Positions 28,188-45,805 of a DNA stretch of 45,805 nucleotides are shown one piece after another. This DNA is from a virus. Location of the stretch: the IMG/VR virus record IMGVR_UViG_3300039454_000299, positions 1 to 45,805 of that record; one strand, 5' to 3'. Below the pieces are notes generated by a model. The model saw only the letters and a program-made list of their open reading frames with translations. It was not told where the DNA came from and ran no database searches. Numbering within the stretch: position 1 is the stretch's first letter; the number at the start of each line of letters is the position of its first letter. A program made the position numbers and the translations under genes.

Positions 28188-28769
28188 ATGATCCGTGCCT
28201 ATATCTATGCCCGCGTGTCGAAGGATGCGCAAGACAATGCGATGCAGCTCCATGACCTGCGGAATTACGCGAACCGCAACGGCTGGACAGTGACGGAGTG
28301 GACCGAGAAGGAGTCGAGCGTGAAGCGCCGTCCCGTGTTTCAGTCGATGCTCGAGGAGGCGTCGCGGGGCAAGTGCGATGTGATTCTGGTATGGCGGCTC
28401 GACCGGTTCGCGCGCTCGATGAAGGATTTCGTGCTGATCACGCAGCAGCTGGATGCGTGGGGCGTGCGGCTCATCAGCGTGACCGAGGGCATGGACACGG
28501 GCGACGCCAATCCGTTCGCCGAATTTCAACGGGGCCTGCTCGCGCTGCTCGCGCAGCTCGAGCGTAAGATTATCGTGGCGCGGGTGAAGGCGGGAGTGGC
28601 GGAGGCGAAGCGGCAGGGCAAGCACTGCGGCCGGCCTACTCGCGTGTGGCGGCGGGACGAGGCCGCGGCGCTGCGGCGGGCGGGCATGAGCTGGCGCGGG
28701 ATCGCGCGCAAGATCGGGGTGCCGGAAGCCACTATCCGGTTGGCCCTGAATGGTGCGCAGAAAGTCTGA
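28188..28769 (+). CDS. Small serine recombinase (resolvase/invertase family) with a C-terminal HTH.
   Basis: Has the catalytic N-terminus MIRAYIYARVSKDAQ, then VWRLDRFARS, the E-helix LLAQLERKIIVARVKAGV, and the C-terminal HTH MSWRGIARKIGVPEATI. Confidence 0.9.
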   Translation: MIRAYIYARVSKDAQDNAMQLHDLRNYANRNGWTVTEWTEKESSVKRRPVFQSMLEEASRGKCDVILVWRLDRFARSMKDFVLITQQLDAWGVRLISVTEGMDTGDANPFAEFQRGLLALLAQLERKIIVARVKAGVAEAKRQGKHCGRPTRVWRRDEAAALRRAGMSWRGIARKIGVPEATIRLALNGAQKV

Positions 28770-31895: not shown

Positions 31896-33176
31896 TCACC
31901 CACCAGCCCGTCCGATTTCCTCTTCATCCTCGTCTGGAAGGTCCAAGACTTTCCGCGCCCACATTCGGTCCAACGCTCCTGATTTTGGGTCGGCCAGGAT
32001 GCCGACTGCTTCCACGTGTTGTTCCGGGCTGTAACGCTCACGACGAGGTTCGGGTTGCTTCTGTTCTTCCTGAGAATGCTTTTGGGCGAGCTTTGCGGGC
32101 ACCTGCTGAAGCAAGATGCCTGTGGGGTTTCGCACTGACCTCCGGTTGATCGTGCGGTCCACCTGGTGGATGGTTTCCAGGATCTCCTGTGTCGACACGC
32201 CTGGTTTGGCCTGCCGGCACGTAGCCACGAACTTTTCTGCCGCGGCGTGTTTGACTCCCAGCCGGTCCTTAACAACAACAACATCCACCTCGGAAACACT
32301 CAGATCTTCCGGATTTACAGAGGGGTCTTTGTTGTTGTTGTTCTCTGTTGTAGTTCTCTGTAACTCTGCTTCCTTATTAGCACTGGTATGCGCATAGCCG
32401 TTTTGGGCTTTGCGCGAACCGGAATCCTGGGATTGCGCAGAGTCAATGCCGGCATGCGCAGAGCCTGTCTGCGCAGAGTAGTTCGGCCAGAGCAGTAACT
32501 GTACTTCTAGCGATTCGGGAGCTGGTCGGCGTTTCTTGCCGTTGCGGAGCTGGAGACCAAACTCTCCGAACAACCGCGCGGCCTCCTGCTCCTGAATGGC
32601 GCGGATCGCCGCGTCCGCATCGGCACGCAGCTGCTTCGCCCAACGCTCGTATTCCTGGTAACGGGCATCGAAGTCGCGGGCCTTTTCTTCGGGCAAATTC
32701 TCGACTTCGGGGCGGAGATAGGGCTTCTCTTCTACCAGTATGCGCAAAGTTTCTGACCAGTTTGCGCAGACTGGTGACATCTCTGTATCTTGCTGTTTTT
32801 TTATACCCTTAAGTTGGGTGCTGCGGGAGGGGACGTTACCGCATAAATATAACTTACCCTCTCCATCCCTGGCAACCAGTTTCTGTGCCGCCGCGGCTTC
32901 AAAGGCCCGGTTCGCGTTCGCCCAATCGCCGTTGTAGCGTTCGTTTGCGAAGTCCTGGATGGTGAGCTGGTTTCCCTGTTGGTCAACCGCGTAATTACGA
33001 CGGTGGCCTCTCCGGATGGTCTTGGACCGCACCCAGGCTACCGCGCTTTGCACCGGATCCGGATCATCGAGGAAGTACAGGTACTGTGACGGCGGAATGG
33101 GATCGAAGCCGTGAGGCGACCCCATCTCCTTCATTAGGTCGGTGGCTCTTTGCAGGTCGGCATTGGGAGGCGTCAT
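31896..33176 (-). CDS. Rep-like or DNA-binding early protein (426 aa); function tentative.
   Basis: GGAGG lies 7 nt upstream. The C-terminal ...RSVRNPTGILLQQVP resembles the xNPxGyL motif of DnaD/phage-replication-initiator-type domains (from memory). It lies next to the iteron region and has lower GC with a low-complexity middle. Confidence 0.5.
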   Translation of the reverse strand: MTPPNADLQRATDLMKEMGSPHGFDPIPPSQYLYFLDDPDPVQSAVAWVRSKTIRRGHRRNYAVDQQGNQLTIQDFANERYNGDWANANRAFEAAAAQKLVARDGEGKLYLCGNVPSRSTQLKGIKKQQDTEMSPVCANWSETLRILVEEKPYLRPEVENLPEEKARDFDARYQEYERWAKQLRADADAAIRAIQEQEAARLFGEFGLQLRNGKKRRPAPESLEVQLLLWPNYSAQTGSAHAGIDSAQSQDSGSRKAQNGYAHTSANKEAELQRTTTENNNNKDPSVNPEDLSVSEVDVVVVKDRLGVKHAAAEKFVATCRQAKPGVSTQEILETIHQVDRTINRRSVRNPTGILLQQVPAKLAQKHSQEEQKQPEPRRERYSPEQHVEAVGILADPKSGALDRMWARKVLDLPDEDEEEIGRAGG

Positions 33177-33738
33177 CGCGCGCCTCCGGCACCGGATTTG
33201 GCTTCGCCGCTCGCGCCGGTTCGTCTACTGGGTCTGTTTCTGCCGGGCATCCCAACGTTCCTGTTTCACTCGGGTTTCGGCCCTGTGAAATCACAACTAC
33301 GGTTGGATTTGCGCTGGGGAGTGCGGCAGAAAACCTTGTAGAATGAAGGCTGGCCGTGCCCTCCGGCGCGGTACTGTTGCAACCGAAGTTCTGTCGCGGA
33401 AGCTGTTAGGCCTAGGAAACTTAAGCAGCAACCGTTTCAGGCTTCGGATAAAAGCCGATTGAACCGGAGGTGCTCTTCCACGGCTGTAGTGCGGCCGTCC
33501 CTGACGGGGACGACCGTCTTTCCAAAATAGTTTACATAAATGGAGTTCGCGGAAGAAAAACGGCGATGGGCTATGCGTCCGCGCACCGGCCAGTATTGGG
33601 TTCGGCGCGGAACGGACCGGCAGAAATCGCCTCAAATACCCCAGCACGCACAAGCCGTACTGGAATGCCCAGTAAAGAGTTAGGCTTCTAGTCCTATTGG
33701 CGCTGGGCCGTGAATCTGATACGCTGCCAGAGATCATA

Positions 33739-33847
33739 GACGTATCCGTTGAGCGTCCTTTCTTGTGGCGTTTGGCGTTTGCGTTGGACGTATCCGTTGA
33801 GCGTCCTCCTTTCTTTTTTGGGTGGCGTTCGGCGTTTGCGTTTGTTG
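33739..33847. repeat. Two tandem iteron-like units, each GACGTATCCGTTGAGCGTCCT plus GGCGTT(T/C)GGCGTTTGCGTT.
   Basis: Unit 1 is 33739..33786 and unit 2 is 33787..33847. Each 21-mer contains a GACG...CGTC inverted repeat. Confidence 0.85.
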
Positions 33848-34028
33848 ATGTCCTCCGGGTGACAGTAATCGGTTTCCGGTGGGCATTTTCTCGTTGCTCA
33901 TGACTGGCGCGCAGAGATCGCGGCCTACGCTTACTGCTCTGGAAAAGAAATAAGCGGAGGTCAAATCTTTGCGCCGCCGGCGCCTATCGATTAGAATTGG
34001 AGAGGCAAACCTGTACATTTGTGTTTTC

Positions 34029-34070
34029 ACCGGGCTGCTCCCCAATACGGCAGCCCGGTTGCTGTTTATA
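34029..34070 (+). terminator. Perfect 10-bp stem hairpin (ACCGGGCTGC, 11-nt loop, GCAGCCCGGT) followed by TGCTGTTTATA.
   Basis: The T-rich tail is on the + strand only. No annotated + strand gene lies upstream, which implies an unannotated + transcript or a non-terminator role. Confidence 0.4.
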
Positions 34071-34200
34071 CCCTTCCTCCCCATTTGAATTGGGGGCAAA
34101 ATTCAGAAGTAATCCAAAGGAACAAATCCGAGGTTACACCCGTCCCGCGCCCGCCGGAAGGTTCAATCGGATCTAGCCTAACCTTCGCTTAGTATTCGCC

Positions 34201-34650
34201 TTAGGCCGATTGCGGAATCATTTTGATCATCGCCTGCGGCTCCTGGCGGGCGCCGCGCAGTGCGTCGAGATCGGCGCGGTGGACGCGCCACGGGTCCCGC
34301 CGGCACGCAAACTTGCGCGCGGGTAAGTCGCCGGCGCGGATCAATGCCAGCACCGCGCCCTCGCTGACGTCCCACAGCAATGCCACCTCCGAGAGGCGCA
34401 GCCAGGCGCGGCCGCTATCCGAGGTCGGCACTGTGGGTAACTGCGTAGCCTTGGGACGCGGCCGCCGCTCCATAGCCAGGCGCTTTACGTCACGAGTCAG
34501 GAGGACGGTCTGGCGCCGCCTGGTTTCGGGGTTGTAGCTTTCGAGTTTTCGAATCTTGCCCTCGTCGGCGAGTTCGAGCGCGCGCCGCGGCATGACGCCA
34601 AGAAGTTTCGCGGCGATGTCTTTGGTGATGTATTCTGGCTGTGTATCCAA
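34201..34650 (-). CDS. DNA-binding protein (149 aa) with two excisionase/MerR-type HTH domains.
   Basis: Start reassigned to TTG 34650 (GGAGA 7 nt upstream). The 5' part of track ORF 34201..34728 covers a TATAAT box and a perfect inverted repeat. The HTH motifs are YITKDIAAKLLGVMPRRALELADEGKI and LRLSEVALLWDVSEGAVLALIRAGDLPA. Confidence 0.65.
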   Translation of the reverse strand: MDTQPEYITKDIAAKLLGVMPRRALELADEGKIRKLESYNPETRRRQTVLLTRDVKRLAMERRPRPKATQLPTVPTSDSGRAWLRLSEVALLWDVSEGAVLALIRAGDLPARKFACRRDPWRVHRADLDALRGARQEPQAMIKMIPQSA

Positions 34651-34671
34651 TCTGTACTCTCCTTGATTCAC

Positions 34672-34702
34672 GAGTACGTGCAGGCCCAAAAGGCACGTAC
34701 TC
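34672..34702. promoter_or_regulatory. Perfect 10-bp inverted repeat GAGTACGTGC-N11-GCACGTACTC, between the - strand TATAAT (34719..34714) and the Xis-like start.
   Basis: Arms at 34672..34681 and 34693..34702. Either an operator or a 5'-UTR hairpin. Confidence 0.6.
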
Positions 34703-34784
34703 GCTTCAAGGGGATTATAGAGGCCCATCCTTGCGCCACGCTATTTAAATCACTCGCGAGCGGTCCCAGAGGTACCGTGTCGTT

Positions 34785-34937
34785 ATGGAAGCAACAGTCC
34801 CCGAGGGCGAGCGCTCCGAGCGTATCCGGCGCATGATCGACTCGCTTCTCGAGCATCAGCAGGTGCTCGATGAGGCCATCCTGCTGCTCGAAGAGATCGC
34901 GGCGGAACGGCAGGAGCAAGCGCGCGGAATGCCATAA
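34785..34937 (+). CDS. Possible 50-aa acidic coiled-coil ORF, divergent from the Xis-like gene.
   Basis: Hand translation: MEATVPEGERSERIRRMIDSLLEHQQVLDEAILLLEEIAAERQEQARGMP. Third-position GC is high. A TTAAAT -10-like box lies at 34745..34750. Absent from the track (under 60 aa). Confidence 0.4.
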   Translation: MEATVPEGERSERIRRMIDSLLEHQQVLDEAILLLEEIAAERQEQARGMP

Positions 34938-34946
34938 GCCATCCGC

Positions 34947-35115
34947 CGGTGGTGGTATGTGTGGAGCGTGTCGCACTAATCACGCTCACCGCAATCCTGC
35001 GCGGCGGCGGTAGTGGTATGTGCGGAACTCGCCGCACGTATCACGCCCGTGGGCTAGGCGGCGCCGATACGAGTGGGCGGTAGTGGTATGTGCGGAGCGT
35101 GTCGCACTAATCACG
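34947..35115 (+). repeat. Three 38-nt stem-loop repeats (R1 34947..34984, R2 35008..35045, R3 35078..35115).
   Basis: R1 vs R3 is 36/38 identical and R2 vs R3 is 32/38. The conserved flanks are CGGT(A/G)GTGGTATGTG and ATCACG. The stems tolerate G.U pairs only on the + strand. Confidence 0.85.
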
Positions 35116-35135
35116 TCTCAGACGTAGATCTCTCG

Positions 35136-35426
35136 TTAGGCGGCGGGTGCCCTCAGTTCCCGCCACACCCACCATAGAGCCAGTTGCACGCGGTTCTCAA
35201 GGCCGACCTTGAACAGCGAATGCTTGATGTGAAGTTTGACCGTGCCCGGGCTGATCCGGAGCGCCGCGGCGATCTCTTTGTTGGCTAATCCTTGCGCGAC
35301 CAGGCGCGCGACTTCGAGTTCGCGCGCGGTGAGGCGCACTCCGGGGCTGAAGTCGAGGGAGCCCGGCCAGGCCGGGCGCTTGCCGGTCTGGGGCTCTAAA
35401 CTCTGACCGCAACGCGCGCAGGTCAC
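35136..35426 (-). CDS. LuxR/GerE-type HTH regulator (97 aa).
   Basis: LTARELEVARLVAQGLANKEIAAALRISPGTVKLHIKHSLFKVGLENRVQLALW. GTG 35426 overlaps TGA 35425..35423 of the upstream gene (GTGA). Confidence 0.75.
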   Translation of the reverse strand: MTCARCGQSLEPQTGKRPAWPGSLDFSPGVRLTARELEVARLVAQGLANKEIAAALRISPGTVKLHIKHSLFKVGLENRVQLALWWVWRELRAPAA

Positions 35427-35608
35427 TGGAGCTGGGTGGCGTGGTTCGACGGATCCTCCCGGTGGCTCCAGAGCGCCAGTTCGACCCGATTTCGGCACTC
35501 GAGAATGCGCAAAAGCCCGCTCACGTAATTGCTTACGGTGCTCTCCGAGAGGCCGAGCTCCCATGCAATCTCTTTGTTCAACTTCCCTATGGCCAACAGC
35601 CGCAACAC
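35423..35608 (-). CDS. LuxR/GerE-type HTH protein (61 aa from the first canonical start). The domain homology continues upstream of that start.
   Basis: VLRLLAIGKLNKEIAWELGLSESTVSNYVSGLLRILECRNRVELALW. In-frame VTRRQSQ, the usual first helix, precedes GTG 35608. There is no ATG, GTG or TTG back to the stop. Confidence 0.5.
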   Translation of the reverse strand: MLRLLAIGKLNKEIAWELGLSESTVSNYVSGLLRILECRNRVELALWSHREDPSNHATQLQ

Positions 35609-35748
35609 TTGGGATTGCCGCCTGGTAACCCGGCGGCAAGCCGTATAAGCAGATTTGATAATTGCACCGCCGGAATCGATCGCGCCTATAGAGGTAGTGG
35701 GAAATTACGTATGTTTTTATACCTCCGGGTCCGAAATACTGGTCGTAG

Positions 35749-36159
35749 ATGCCCGCCTCCCCCAAAGCCCAGGGTCTCGAAACGACGATTGACCGCTACG
35801 GCGAGCTGGACACGCAGATCCAGCAGTTCGCGCCGGTAGTAGCGGAGCACAAAAGACTCAAGAAAGAGATCGAGAGCTGGTACGAGTCGCTTCCGGCCGG
35901 CCAGCCGCAGCTCGCCAAAGGCGCGCGGTACACGATCCAGCTGGGCGCGCGCGAGAACGAGCGCACCGTGGTTCATCCGGGAAAGGCGTTTGCCGCGCTG
36001 AAGAAGGCCGTGGGCTCGCTCGACGCCGCGGTGGCGCTGGTGACCATTCCGTTCGGCGCGGCCATCGACAAGTTCATTCCCAAGTCGCTACACCCGAGCT
36101 TCGTGGTTGAGGAGCGCACGGGATCGCGGACGTTCAAGTGCGTCCGCAACGATGTTTAG
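35749..36159 (+). CDS. Hypothetical early protein (136 aa).
   Basis: First gene of the rightward operon. GTCCGAAATACTGG upstream resembles the box upstream of the recombinase gene. Confidence 0.6.
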   Translation: MPASPKAQGLETTIDRYGELDTQIQQFAPVVAEHKRLKKEIESWYESLPAGQPQLAKGARYTIQLGARENERTVVHPGKAFAALKKAVGSLDAAVALVTIPFGAAIDKFIPKSLHPSFVVEERTGSRTFKCVRNDV

Positions 36160-36352: not shown

Positions 36353-36752
36353 AGAGGCCAAGCGCCGGGTGGTGGCGCGGGGCGTAATCGCGGGCCAGAC
36401 GCCGAAGCAGATCGCGGCCGAGGCGCAGGCTTCGGTGCGTCATGTGGAGCGCCTGGTGAGCGAGCCCGAAACGCAGCTCATCATCGCGGACATGATGCGC
36501 CCGCACCGCAGAACGCTCGAGGCGCTAACGGTCAAAGCTCTCGATGCGGTCGACCGCGCGCTCGATGCCCAGCGCGATGACGGCAATGCCAATCACGAGA
36601 TCCAACTGCGCGCGGTGGGGCGGCTGAAGACGATGCTCGAGCTCGCGCAGGGACGCAAAGAGGTCGAGGCGCAGGAGCCGGGACTGGTGACGTGGGAACA
36701 GTTCGTGATGCTCTATGCCAAGCGCGCGGAGGTGGTCCATGCCGGTCATTAG
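36324..36752 (+). CDS. HTH protein (142 aa); possible small terminase subunit or regulator.
   Basis: N-terminal IAGQTPKQIAAEAQASVRHVERLV is an HTH, followed by a helical region. It lies upstream of terL but is separated from it by the sigma gene. Confidence 0.5.
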   Translation: MMPKGTKASKEAKRRVVARGVIAGQTPKQIAAEAQASVRHVERLVSEPETQLIIADMMRPHRRTLEALTVKALDAVDRALDAQRDDGNANHEIQLRAVGRLKTMLELAQGRKEVEAQEPGLVTWEQFVMLYAKRAEVVHAGH

Positions 36753-37365
36753 ACTGACGCAGCGGCAGTGGGACCGCTACCACCGGGGATTGGCGGGCGC
36801 GGTGGCGCAGCGCCTGGCCAAGCGGCGCGAAGCGCTGATCCTCGAGCACCTGCCCATGGCCGAGCGCCTGGCGCGGCATCTGGCGCACAAGTTCGCCAGT
36901 CACCTCGATATCCGCGATTTGGTGCAGGAGGGGCGCGTGGGGCTGATTCAGGCGGCCGACCGCTACCGATCCGAAGACGGAGCCTTTCCGCGGTTTGCCT
37001 ATCTGCGCGTGCGCGGCGCCATCATCGACGCGAATAAACGGCGCGCCTATAAAGAAGAGCAGCACGCATCGCTTGAAGCCATCGAAGAGCGCTTGGGCTA
37101 TCTGCCGGCGAAGCTGCATACCGATCCCGGCCCGCAGCCGGATGAGATCGCAGCCGACGCGGAGCGCATGCGCCGTCTCGAGCAAGCCATGAGCTGCCTG
37201 ACGAGCGAGGAGCGCGCGGTGTTTCGGCGGGCGGTGGCGGGCGAAAGGCCGGCCGCGATTGCGGCCTCTTATGGGCGCGCCTCCAACTGGGCGCGGGTGC
37301 GGCTCTATAGCGCGCGCGAAAAGATGGCGGCCGAGCTCGCTTTATCCCCCGCGGAGGCGGCGTAA
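36739..37365 (+). CDS. Sigma-70-family RNA polymerase sigma factor (208 aa).
   Basis: Region 2 is DLVQEGRVGLIQAADRYRSEDGAFPRFAYLRVRGAIID. Region 4 is LTSEERAVFRRAVAGERPAAIAASYGRASNWARVRLYSAREKM. GGAGGTGG precedes ATG 36739. Confidence 0.85.
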   Translation: MPVIRLTQRQWDRYHRGLAGAVAQRLAKRREALILEHLPMAERLARHLAHKFASHLDIRDLVQEGRVGLIQAADRYRSEDGAFPRFAYLRVRGAIIDANKRRAYKEEQHASLEAIEERLGYLPAKLHTDPGPQPDEIAADAERMRRLEQAMSCLTSEERAVFRRAVAGERPAAIAASYGRASNWARVRLYSAREKMAAELALSPAEAA

Positions 37366-37623: not shown

Positions 37624-39264
37624 ATGAACTACGCCGATCCGGCGGATCCGGCGTACTCGCCCGGCCAGGTGCGCCTGGAAGAGGCGATCCAGAAACAGCG
37701 CAAGCTGGGCAAGCCCGCGCGCATCGTGTATCTCAAATCGCGCCGCATCCGGGCCACGACCGGCACCGCCGCGCGCTTCTTCCACGACACCGCCTTTCAG
37801 GCGGGCGTACACACCGTGGTGCTCGCGCACGACGAGACTTCGGTGAACAACATCTTCAGCATCTACGAGCGGTTCCACAAACGCTATGAGCCGTTCGGCA
37901 AAGTTATCAAGCTGCCGCCGGCGCGGCTGCTGAGCGACCGCATCTACTACGAGTACGCGGGCGATCCGGAGTCGAGCTTCATCCAGATCCATACCGCGGG
38001 CAGCGCCAATTTCGGGCGCAGCTTCCGCATCACCAACGCTCACTTCTCGGAGTTTCCCTACTACCCCAATCCCGCCTCTACGCTCGCCGCGGTGATGTCC
38101 GCGGTGCCCAAGACACCGGACACCACAGCCATCATCGAAGGCACCGCCAAGACCATCGGAGACTACTTCCATAAGCTGTGGCAGCAGGCCATGGATCCGG
38201 CATCGGCGAGCGAATGGCTGGGCCTGTTCCTCGGCTGGTGGGAGCATCCGGGGAACCGCATGCGGCTTGAGATCTCGGCCGACCGGTTCCAGGGCATGCT
38301 CACGAAGGAAGAGTGGGAGCTAAAGCAACGCTTTAACTTATCGCTCGAGCAGTTGTACTGGCGGCGCTGGACCATAGCCAACGATTTCGCGGGCGATCTG
38401 GCGCGCTTCAAGCGCGAGCATCCGGCGGCTCCGGAGGAGGCCTTCACCGCCAACTCGCGCAACCGGTTCTCGATTCCGCATATCGCGCGCATGCCGATCC
38501 AGCGCGAAGCCATCGTGGGCGAGCTGCAGATCGAGCAGGTGGGCATTGAAGAGCGGCCGGTGTTTCTGCCGGGGGAGCACGGAGCGCTGCGCATCTACCG
38601 CATGCCCGAGCGGGGACGCTACTATGCGGCGGGGGCCGATCCTTCGGGCGGGGCGGACGCGAGCGGAGGCGAGGGCGAGCCCGATCCCGATTGGGCGGTG
38701 TGCCATATCTTCGACCGCGATACGGGGGAGCAGTGCGCGGTGCTGCGGGCGCGCATGATGCCGGGGGAGTTCGGGCGCTATGTCTACCGGCTGCTGCGGT
38801 TCTATCACAACGCGCAGGTCTGTCTCGAGCGTACCGGCGCGGGCATCGGCTCGCTCGAGGCGCTGCTCAATCTGAACTATCCGCCGGCGCTGATCTACCA
38901 TCGTCCCGTCCAGCCGGATCAGGATCCGGCAGTGCGCTCCGACAAGATCGGCTGGAATACGGATCCGGTATCGCGCGAGCAGGCTTTGTCGCTGCTCGAC
39001 GAGGCCATACGGCAGTCCGCCATCTTCGTGCATGACCCGATCACGCAGCAGGAGCTGCTGACGTTCGTGATCACGCCGCGGGGCAAGGCGGAGGCGCAGT
39101 CGGGATGCCATGACGACACCGTGCTCGCGCTCGCGTTCGCGGTGATCGTGATGAGCCGCATGCCGAAGCCGCGATTGCCGGAGGCGCGGCCGGCGCCCAA
39201 GATCACGCATTACGGCCGCCCCGGTGTCGAAACAGAGGACAGAGGCAGGAGGTTGATCCGTTGA
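37624..39264 (+). CDS. terL: Terminase large subunit.
   Basis: 546 aa. Has a Walker-B-like VVLAHDE, a nuclease half with YAAGADPSGG and a C-terminal GCHDDTVLALAFAV motif. The portal gene follows downstream. Confidence 0.9.
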   Translation: MNYADPADPAYSPGQVRLEEAIQKQRKLGKPARIVYLKSRRIRATTGTAARFFHDTAFQAGVHTVVLAHDETSVNNIFSIYERFHKRYEPFGKVIKLPPARLLSDRIYYEYAGDPESSFIQIHTAGSANFGRSFRITNAHFSEFPYYPNPASTLAAVMSAVPKTPDTTAIIEGTAKTIGDYFHKLWQQAMDPASASEWLGLFLGWWEHPGNRMRLEISADRFQGMLTKEEWELKQRFNLSLEQLYWRRWTIANDFAGDLARFKREHPAAPEEAFTANSRNRFSIPHIARMPIQREAIVGELQIEQVGIEERPVFLPGEHGALRIYRMPERGRYYAAGADPSGGADASGGEGEPDPDWAVCHIFDRDTGEQCAVLRARMMPGEFGRYVYRLLRFYHNAQVCLERTGAGIGSLEALLNLNYPPALIYHRPVQPDQDPAVRSDKIGWNTDPVSREQALSLLDEAIRQSAIFVHDPITQQELLTFVITPRGKAEAQSGCHDDTVLALAFAVIVMSRMPKPRLPEARPAPKITHYGRPGVETEDRGRRLIR

Positions 39265-45127: not shown

Positions 45128-45805
45128 ATGTTTGTAAGAACGATTCTTCCCGACCTCTATCTGCAGAGCATGCTGCCTGCGATCGACGAGGTCGTCATGA
45201 CGAAGTACTCGAGATTTCCGCAAGAGTTTTCGGAAGTCTTCCGCATGGAGACGAGCTCCCGTTCCATCGAGCAGACCACCGAAGTGACCGGCTTCGGACA
45301 GTTCGCGCTGGTGCCCGAAAACGACACCACGCGCTACGACGATCCGCTGCCGGGCTTCAACAAGACCTACGTGCATGCCCAGTATTCGCTGGGCTTCAAG
45401 GTCTCGCGCGTGGCGGTGGACGATGACAAGTTCGGGGTAGTGCGCAAGCTCGCAACCGAACTGGGGCGCAGCGCCTACGAAACGCAGGAAGTGGTTGCCG
45501 CCTCGATCTTCAATACCGGCTTCACCACCGGCACCGGCCCGGACGGCGTATCGCTGTTCAATACGGCCCATCCGCTGGTGGGCGGGGGCACGCAGACCAA
45601 CCGGCTCTCCTATGCCACCGATCCCGACGTGACCAGCATTCAGCTGGCGCTGACGGATATGCGGCAGACGGTCGATCACCGCGGCAAAAAGCTGCGCATC
45701 CCGACCAAGAAGATGATCGTTCCTCCGGCTCTCGAATTTGTAGCGGCCGAGCTTTTGGGCGGAACCGACCGGGCCGACACGGCCAACCGGACGATCAACG
45801 CGTTC
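45128..45805 (+). CDS. Major capsid protein, 5' part. Open at the window end; continues at 148..390 in circular coordinates.
   Basis: AAGGAGG lies 10 nt upstream of ATG 45128. No stop occurs before the window end, so the ORF is absent from the track. It is in frame with 1..390 through the 147-bp overlap. Confidence 0.7.
   Translation, partial: MFVRTILPDLYLQSMLPAIDEVVMTKYSRFPQEFSEVFRMETSSRSIEQTTEVTGFGQFALVPENDTTRYDDPLPGFNKTYVHAQYSLGFKVSRVAVDDDKFGVVRKLATELGRSAYETQEVVAASIFNTGFTTGTGPDGVSLFNTAHPLVGGGTQTNRLSYATDPDVTSIQLALTDMRQTVDHRGKKLRIPTKKMIVPPALEFVAAELLGGTDRADTANRTINAF
45659..45805. repeat. Right copy of the 147-bp terminal direct repeat, identical to 1..147.
   Basis: Same comparison as the left copy. 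The repeat lies inside the capsid coding sequence. Confidence 0.95.

Follow-up and report, generated by a model that had tools for sequence, protein, structure and literature searches.

Palindromic Repeats Upstream of a Tandem Winged-Helix Gene as Putative Operators in an Uncultivated Phage Genome

The stretch of DNA analyzed here, IMG/VR virus record IMGVR_UViG_3300039454_000299 at its full length of 45,805 nucleotides (nt; hereafter the window), harbors one family of repeats in three 38-nt direct copies (R1, R2, and R3), each of which is a quasi-palindrome. The repeats are located in a 485-nt gap between two LuxR-type genes and an Xis-type gene, all on the minus strand, and a fourth palindrome, I4 (34671-34703), is found close to the start of the Xis-type gene. 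Judging from comparative sequence analysis, we consider it fairly probable that R1-R3 and I4 are operators of the protein encoded by this gene, a tandem winged-helix protein, and that they serve in its autoregulation or as a transcriptional roadblock.

Repeats and Promoter-Like Region of the Winged-Helix Gene

The features that bear on this assignment are the following (base pairs, bp; amino acids, aa):

34947-34984: R1, a 38-nt repeat with a 32-bp quasi-palindrome, with minus-strand half-sites CGTGATTAGTGCG and GGTGGTATGTGTG
35008-35045: R2, the best-formed copy, 79% identical to R1, GTGGTATGTGCGG-N6-CCGCACGTATCAC
35078-35115: R3, 95% identical to R1, with 20 nt between its end and the stop codon of the second LuxR-type gene
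34671-34703: I4, a perfect palindrome, CGAGTACGTGC-N11-GCACGTACTCG, between a -10-like TATAAT and the ribosome-binding site
34714-34751, minus strand: promoter-like region of the winged-helix gene, with the 17-nt box GATTTAAATAGCGTGGC at 34751-34735 and TATAAT at 34719-34714
34201-34650, minus strand: the tandem winged-helix gene, 149 aa, two Xis/BldC-type domains, the proposed binder of the sites

R1-R3 start 61 and 70 nt apart, are separated by spacers of 23 and 32 nt, and lie 297-465 nt upstream of the winged-helix gene start at 34650. An earlier note, written from the sequence of the window, had described three 38-nt repeats at 34947, 35008, and 35078 with shared flanks, and a repeat search recovered all three; the 18-nt left flank, CGGTRGTGGTATGTGYGG, has exact matches at R1, R2, and R3 and nowhere else in the whole window. 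With up to three mismatches allowed, the left flank has five matches in the window, compared with 0.11 expected, and none of 100 shuffles reached five. The half-site octamer, GTAYGTGC, occurs six times in the window, and four of these occurrences (4/6) are in this region. I4 is positioned at about +4 to +36 relative to the inferred transcription start.

On the minus strand, TTTAAA and TATAAT are 24 nt apart, and the GATTTAAATAGCGTGGC box is unique in the window. The same box occurs at the same 24-nt distance from TATTCT, TACGAT, or TATGCT in four other loci (L039, L042, L031, and L034; the compared loci are numbered with an L), and its shared form in these five loci, window included, is (G/A)TTTAAATAGCGT(T/G)GC. 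The earlier note had reported a "TTAAAT box" at 34745, taken as a rightward promoter, and a 50-aa open reading frame (ORF; here orf50); a TTTAAA at 34744-34749 and the ORF at 34785-34937 are both present. Because the box is conserved upstream of Xis-type gene homologs in four other loci, it is instead read leftward, as a promoter-like element of the winged-helix gene with putative promoter activity.

The likely start of the winged-helix gene is the TTG at 34650. The mechanically called ORF (34201-34728) encodes 175 aa, and its ATG at 34728 precedes the gene's own TATAAT; given that an AAGGAG (34664-34659) stands 8 nt upstream of the TTG and that homologs align from there, this ORF is likely better read as 149 aa. 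In agreement with this start, the same protein is recorded with 149 aa on a 21-kb Joint Genome Institute contig (P0001). The gene call in L034-L038 likewise extends through the operator into a false N-terminus.

The Site Family in Other Loci

Homologs of the winged-helix protein are rare, with six obtained by single-sequence search and 41 by profile search, and their contigs were oriented on the gene; the closest (P0002, 63% identity) is on a 546-nt contig with 16 nt upstream. Eight independent loci (L033, L039, L042, L031, L034, L045, L046, and the window) that are otherwise unrelated have the same element directly upstream of the ribosome-binding site. The family site is a quasi-palindrome of ~34 bp with the consensus GCGGATAnGTGCG-N7-8-CGCACnTATCCGC; the element in L033 is GCGGATATGTGCGAAcaacTCCGCACGTATCCGC, and the upstream element in L046 combines a 16/17 stem with a spacer of 14 nt. 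Six loci (the window, L039, L042, L031, L034, and L045) have the site between a -10-like hexamer and the ribosome-binding site, and in L033 and L046 it is directly upstream of the ribosome-binding site, without a recognizable promoter-like element. Extra upstream copies are present in L039 (one) and L042 (two), directly upstream of the conserved TTTAAATAGCGTTGC box and outside the presumed transcript. R1-R3 themselves are not between the -10-like hexamer and the ribosome-binding site, a position that only I4 occupies in the window; they match the upstream copies of L039 and L042 in kind, but are farther off, with orf50 separating them from the promoter.

A sequence-only family model was trained on eight sites of the other loci, with no sequence from the window, and both strands were searched with filters off. 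The top match in the window is R2 (20.7 bits, E = 1.9e-5 on the plus strand; 15.8 bits on the minus strand), and R3 (13.5 bits, E = 0.0035) and R1 (11.1 bits, E = 0.021, minus strand) were also recovered. The top five rows are all accounted for by R2, R3, and R1, each read one way or both ways (E = 1.9e-5 to 0.13), and are followed by a row with E = 0.61; R1-R3 are the sole matches with E below 0.5 in the 45.8 kb. Since a model built on foreign sites ranks R2, R3, and R1 at the top of the window, R1-R3 belong to this family, although their outer half-site reads GTGAT/GTGGT in place of GCGGAT.

The linkage of the site to the gene is evident from the fetched loci, in 183 kb of which every model match is directly upstream of a winged-helix homolog, apart from one inside such a gene; the match in L045 is a non-training site. 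The neighboring genes vary by locus, with an integrase in L039 and L031, LuxR genes in the window, and unknown genes in the others, and the winged-helix gene is the only one in common. The internal match (L046:1316-1351, 17.8 bits on both strands) is within the coding sequence of the homolog, in a lineage-specific linker insertion.

Close relatives at the DNA level were found neither among INPHARED phages (blastn) nor in IMG/VR (exact-pattern scan), and the 17 matches of a strict window-type pattern in metagenome contigs were all chance matches without the repeat flanks. Homologs of the winged-helix protein in IMG/VR and the GTDB genomes amount to two distant loci, both without the motif.

Two observations concern how such regions vary. 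In L042 (531-681, and likewise in L043 and L044), a unit made up of a half-site followed by CCGCAGG and a TTGAAATAG/TTTAAATAG box is duplicated 43 nt apart upstream of the full operator, which suggests that the operator and promoter modules grow through local duplication. Distant homologs in L050 (3925-3950) and L047 (3443-3465), which have 36% identity and SVRRVLELS in the N-terminal domain, lack the GCGGATA palindrome and have GCGGGCG-N7-CGCCCGC, preceded by AAG, at the equivalent position; this palindrome may represent a shifted specificity, or the terminator of an upstream 51-aa gene.

Recognition of Duplex DNA or of an RNA Hairpin

The earlier note had argued from conserved structure with changing sequence for an RNA element transcribed rightward. 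In the relatives, the half-site sequence appears to be kept rather than the pairing. The 20 half-sites (consensus GCGGATAnGTGCG) are 75-100% conserved at most positions; position -5 is free, and in no site do the two arms agree at it. Spacer length hardly varies (7-8 nt), whereas spacer sequence is unrelated from site to site.

When the site is treated as a stem, 13 "pairs" in 10 elements are 78.5% paired, with a covariation score above that of shuffles. Three pairs are invariant, and pairs 5, 7, 8, and 9 are unpaired in 4, 5, 8, and 4 of the 10 elements, respectively. Only the two outer pairs have changed on both sides, in two lineages, and this pattern would also be expected of a palindromic operator that co-evolves with its protein. 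Strand preference is mixed across loci, the better-folding strand being the sense strand in three and the antisense strand in three, with two ties. R2 scores best in one orientation and R1/R3 in the other, and the L045 site is reversed, a mixture that favors a DNA site because orientation should be immaterial to a palindromic DNA site, whereas it would matter to an RNA. In the truncated L042 copies (c1 and c2), the full half-site is kept and the outer hairpin is gone. Taken together, the kept half-site sequence, the mostly unpaired center, the mixed strand and orientation, and the copies upstream of the promoter box appear to favor protein recognition of duplex DNA. Of the alternatives that the earlier note had listed, iterated binding sites are the one that this comparison prefers, with the Xis-type protein as the proposed binder.

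The Winged-Helix Protein and a Putative Mechanism

The protein has a Pfam HTH_17 match (E = 1.2e-11) and a PHROG assignment as excisionase/regulator, and its profile matches 4j2n (E = 0.0016) and 6amk (E = 0.07) in the PDB. In the AlphaFold2 model (mean predicted local distance difference test score 83.7), two domains (residues 7-62 and 83-135) are joined by a disordered linker. Each domain was compared using Foldseek, with a template modeling score (TM-score, normalized to the target) of 0.80 for mycobacteriophage Pukovnik Xis (4j2n) and 0.84 for DNA-bound BldC (6amk), the latter at a root-mean-square deviation (rmsd) of 1.7. On the basis of this superposition and the profile matches, the product is a predicted tandem Xis/BldC-type DNA-binding protein.

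In the proposed mechanism, the tandem winged-helix protein would bind the palindromes. On I4, just downstream of its own -10-like hexamer, it would block initiation or early elongation, resulting in negative autoregulation. R1-R3, 260-410 bp away at the end of the LuxR operon, with their centers 61 and 70 bp apart and about 280 bp upstream, could add cooperative occupancy and possibly loop to the promoter site; they might also form a roadblock against read-through from the LuxR operon and against transcription of the antisense orf50.

Several observations weigh against this assignment. The proposed binder is assigned from its co-occurrence with the sites, the sample of about eight loci is small and all metagenomic, and the family-consensus pattern was found in neither the GTDB genomes nor IMG/VR. 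I4 has a spacer 1 nt longer than that of the family and a weak family-model score (3.1 bits). Known Xis-type regulators use direct repeats about one helical turn apart, while the sites here are 34-bp inverted repeats 61-70 bp apart, and the two domains of the protein differ in sequence, yet the half-sites are alike. All three window copies fold better on the plus strand and have an apparently coding ORF just upstream, so that their transcription is plausible, and the 14-nt spacer in L046 suits an RNA loop better than a fixed protein footprint.

Alternative Explanations

Two further features of the region are relevant to the alternatives:

34785-34937, plus strand: orf50, a small orphan ORF antisense to the LuxR-to-winged-helix unit, between the promoter box and R1
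35423-35608 and 35136-35426, minus strand: two tandem small LuxR/GerE-type helix-turn-helix genes (GerE E = 2.9e-17 and 3.5e-13; gene calls in L012)

One alternative, which we regard as unlikely, is that R1-R3 are a structured plus-strand RNA in the 3' untranslated region of orf50, acting as a terminator or stabilizer, as an antisense to LuxR read-through, or as a protein sponge. The folds on which this idea was founded are real: R2 forms the 13-bp stem described in the earlier note (-22.0 kcal/mol, z = -5.3), and in R1 and R3 a 2x2 internal loop separates the outer stem from the inner one (-11.6 and -13.3 kcal/mol), also as described. The minus-strand folds of R1, R2, and R3 are weaker (-4.5, -13.1, and -9.5 kcal/mol), although R1 and R3 are near-identical and the plus-strand G.U asymmetry therefore amounts to about two independent observations. 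The two outer pairs do change on both sides in the window lineage. In the 206-nt context, however, the minimum-energy fold pairs the repeats with one another (z = -2.4 on the plus strand and -1.1 on the minus strand), and the three local hairpins are lost. Among the homologs there is no consistent strand bias, the center of the stem is mostly unpaired, and copies occur outside presumed transcripts and in both orientations.

The GC content of orf50 by codon position (0.78/0.35/0.75) is coding-like, with the same pattern given by the antisense frame. The ENA contigs include orf50 among their gene calls, and 9 nt separate its end from R1. Its supposed promoter box is leftward, and a consensus scan for a sigma-70-like plus-strand promoter for orf50 returned none. 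A search of 5.8 billion proteins recovered an identical copy only, and the ORF is missing from every other motif-carrying locus; orf50, as an orphan missing from these loci, is outside the conserved module. The 20-nt distance from the last repeat to the LuxR stop codon, noted earlier as convergence with that operon, is correct, but the arrangement is not functionally convergent. With regard to a terminator cluster, the sequences after the stems of R1-R3 (CTCACC, CCCGTG, and TCTCAG) include no T tract, and a consensus scan of 34100-35800 found no terminator-like site on either strand. No Rfam family reached its gathering score in the window, and when 33100-35300 was searched at E up to 1, a microRNA model (E = 0.87) was the sole match; a search for tRNA and transfer-messenger RNA returned nothing. 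The RNA and terminator interpretations of R1-R3 are thus not supported, and neither is the CRISPR-like one considered below.

It is likewise improbable that R1-R3 are DNA sites for some other protein or process, such as the LuxR-type proteins, a host factor, a replication initiator (at iterons), or a recombinase. GerE-type proteins bind inverted repeats as dimers, and R3 ends 20 nt from the LuxR operon; the two proteins (61 and 96 aa) lack receiver or ligand domains, and their genes precede the repeats and share the strand of the winged-helix gene. Against the LuxR-type proteins, a GerE-domain gene is not adjacent in the motif loci L031, L033, L034, L039, L042, L045, and L046, while L001 has a LuxR gene beside a divergent winged-helix gene, yet no motif sites. 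A recombinase would be in keeping with the integrase that adjoins winged-helix homologs in L031, L039, and L050, and with the serine recombinase and nearby 1-kb non-coding gap of the window. However, no tyrosine integrase is present in the window, where three integrases of related loci, used as tblastn queries, had no match below E = 0.37, and the motif tracks the winged-helix promoter rather than the integrase or the element ends.

DNA and RNA roles could also be combined, which we judge rather doubtful: the palindromes would double as duplex sites and as hairpins, with a plus-strand orf50 RNA whose three decoys titrate the winged-helix protein or pair with LuxR read-through RNA. If true, a DNA operator and an RNA sponge or antisense in one element would constitute a small bistable switch in an uncultivated soil phage.

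A minus-strand RNA has a low probability in our estimation. Here, the winged-helix mRNA leader and the read-through RNA from LuxR to the winged-helix gene would contain hairpins that affect stability, processing, or translation and are possibly recognized by a protein. Most loci do have a copy between the -10-like hexamer and the ribosome-binding site, which would form the 5' end of the mRNA, the L033 element is in a 51-nt gap between two co-directional genes without a promoter box, and the 14-nt loop and 16/17 stem of L046 would suit a hairpin. R1-R3, however, fold poorly on this strand (-4.5 to -13.1 kcal/mol, with A.C clashes), the upstream copies of L039 and L042 precede the promoter box, the L045 copy is reversed, and the half-site sequence is conserved while the center is unpaired.

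A mini-array resembling clustered regularly interspaced short palindromic repeats (CRISPR), to which the earlier note had likened the 38-nt repeats and 23- and 32-nt spacers, or a host-type repetitive extragenic palindrome, is scarcely credible: the repeats are only 79-95% identical and irregularly spaced, no cas domain was found among the scanned neighbor proteins (a scan that covered part of the proteins of the window), other loci have single promoter copies, an exact-pattern scan of 185,579 species genomes found no copies, and the metagenome matches are chance and flankless. CRISPR, host-type palindromes, replication iterons, and packaging sites were all set aside as candidates, given that the motif goes with one gene's promoter in otherwise unrelated surroundings.

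Comparison With Known Regulators

Several Xis-type winged-helix proteins regulate transcription via arrays of sites, including Apl, Cox, BldC, and D29 Gp36 (PMC7498355, PMC3936717, PMC5859096, PMC12266134), as does the excisionase-type regulator RdfS (PMC11963761). The sites of phage 186 Apl and phage P2 Cox are arrays at early promoters that are bound cooperatively, and, like the protein considered here, both are small phage winged-helix proteins of excisionase type (PMC7498355, PMC3936717). The integrase that often adjoins homologs of the window gene (L031, L039, and L050) is a further likeness. Apl and Cox are, however, single-domain proteins that use short direct repeats about one helical turn apart, whereas here two domains are fused and the putative sites are 34-bp inverted repeats 61-70 bp apart, and the window has neither a tyrosine integrase nor a recognizable attP.

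The likeness to Streptomyces BldC, and to Pukovnik Xis, is that of the predicted domains, which superpose on these structures (TM-score to target 0.84 with rmsd 1.7, and 0.80, respectively); sequence similarity is marginal (the PDB matches at E = 0.07 and 0.0016). Gp36 of mycobacteriophage D29, a phage not known to integrate, provides a precedent for repression by an Xis-type protein (PMC12266134). BldC and Gp36, regulators of MerR-like or Xis-like type, are monomeric single domains that form head-to-tail multimers on direct repeats, in contrast to the palindromic sites of the window.

R1-R3 are similar to intrinsic terminators and CRISPR repeats in that they are G+C-rich, hairpin-forming intergenic repeats, and differ from them in the lack of a U tract, the non-identical repeats and irregular spacing, the lack of cas genes in the scanned proteins, and the homologous copies at promoters.

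The classical repressor/operator array is that of lambda CI with OR1-3 and OL1-3. The window has a similar layout, with several imperfect palindromic putative operators, of which one overlaps the regulator's own promoter-like region and the others are a few hundred bp away, and such a layout would allow cooperative or looped autoregulation. The folds are unrelated (MerR/Xis winged helix rather than lambda-repressor helix-turn-helix) and the sites of the window are twice as long; the two systems are alike in layout and not homologous, and a lysogeny-switch role would be conjectural here.

Most likely, this is an ordinary kind of control region with an undescribed protein/site pair, rather than a new kind of biology. 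If the operator assignment is true, an unannotated cis-element and a small family of two-domain Xis/BldC-type proteins from uncultivated soil phages and prophages gain a function, and the known behavior of excisionase-type winged-helix proteins, which form filaments on short direct repeats, would be extended to a fused two-domain protein that reads long inverted ones. The analysis also corrects the probable start codon of the regulator and places the "TTAAAT box" in a promoter-like element that faces leftward. The 34-bp site and the 149-aa protein form a defined candidate pair, perhaps reusable as an orthogonal repressor and operator.

The Phage Genome and Its Relatives

The window is a complete phage genome, with structural and packaging genes oriented rightward. 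An exact terminal repeat of ~147 nt (1-147, recurring at 45659-45805) matches the overlap expected when a genome of about 45.66 kb that is circular, or circularly permuted, is assembled. The minus-strand block is early-looking and comprises, in leftward order, the two LuxR/GerE genes, the 485-nt gap, the HTH_17 gene, a 1-kb non-coding gap, and a 426-aa ORF. Outside this block, three genes are pertinent:

36715-37365: sigma factor, directly upstream of the terminase genes
37624-39264: large terminase subunit, in the rightward block
28188-28769, plus strand: 193-aa serine recombinase (Resolvase domain, E = 3.6e-37, plus a helix-turn-helix), the only recombinase found

The same phage is represented on two ENA metagenome contigs, with one mismatch each across 9-11 kb. 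The 11.5-kb contig L012 differs from the window at one position only, 35052 (G to A), which falls between R2 and R3, and the repeats are unchanged.

Relatives defined by the large terminase subunit (61-73% amino-acid identity) comprise 11 loci, and R1-R3 repeats are missing from all 11; the regulatory module is partly present in L001 and L010 only. The regulatory set of a phage-borne sigma factor and two minimal LuxR/GerE proteins is partly common to these two loci. A 193-aa resolvase is found in L034-L038 as well, along with a gene that has a Mu-transposase C-terminal domain.

The 1-kb gap (33177-34200), between the winged-helix gene and the 426-aa ORF, contains no credible ORF and has a lower G+C content (0.57). 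Within it, a tandem duplication (33739-33842) consists of two copies of GACGTATCCGTTGAGCGTCCT, 48 nt apart, each followed by GTGGCGTTYGGCGTTTGCGTT. The gap has no Rfam match and no integrase remnant; an origin, an attachment site, and a non-coding RNA are candidate functions.

The closest terminase relative, L001, has a different palindrome, GATTACCCACACGGCAGTGTGGGTATT, in two copies 58 nt apart (1183-1267), which are inside a 406-aa ORF and 2 kb from the divergent winged-helix gene of that locus. Possibly the 406-aa ORF is an initiator gene and the palindromes are an origin inside it, or they are bound by the regulator of that phage.

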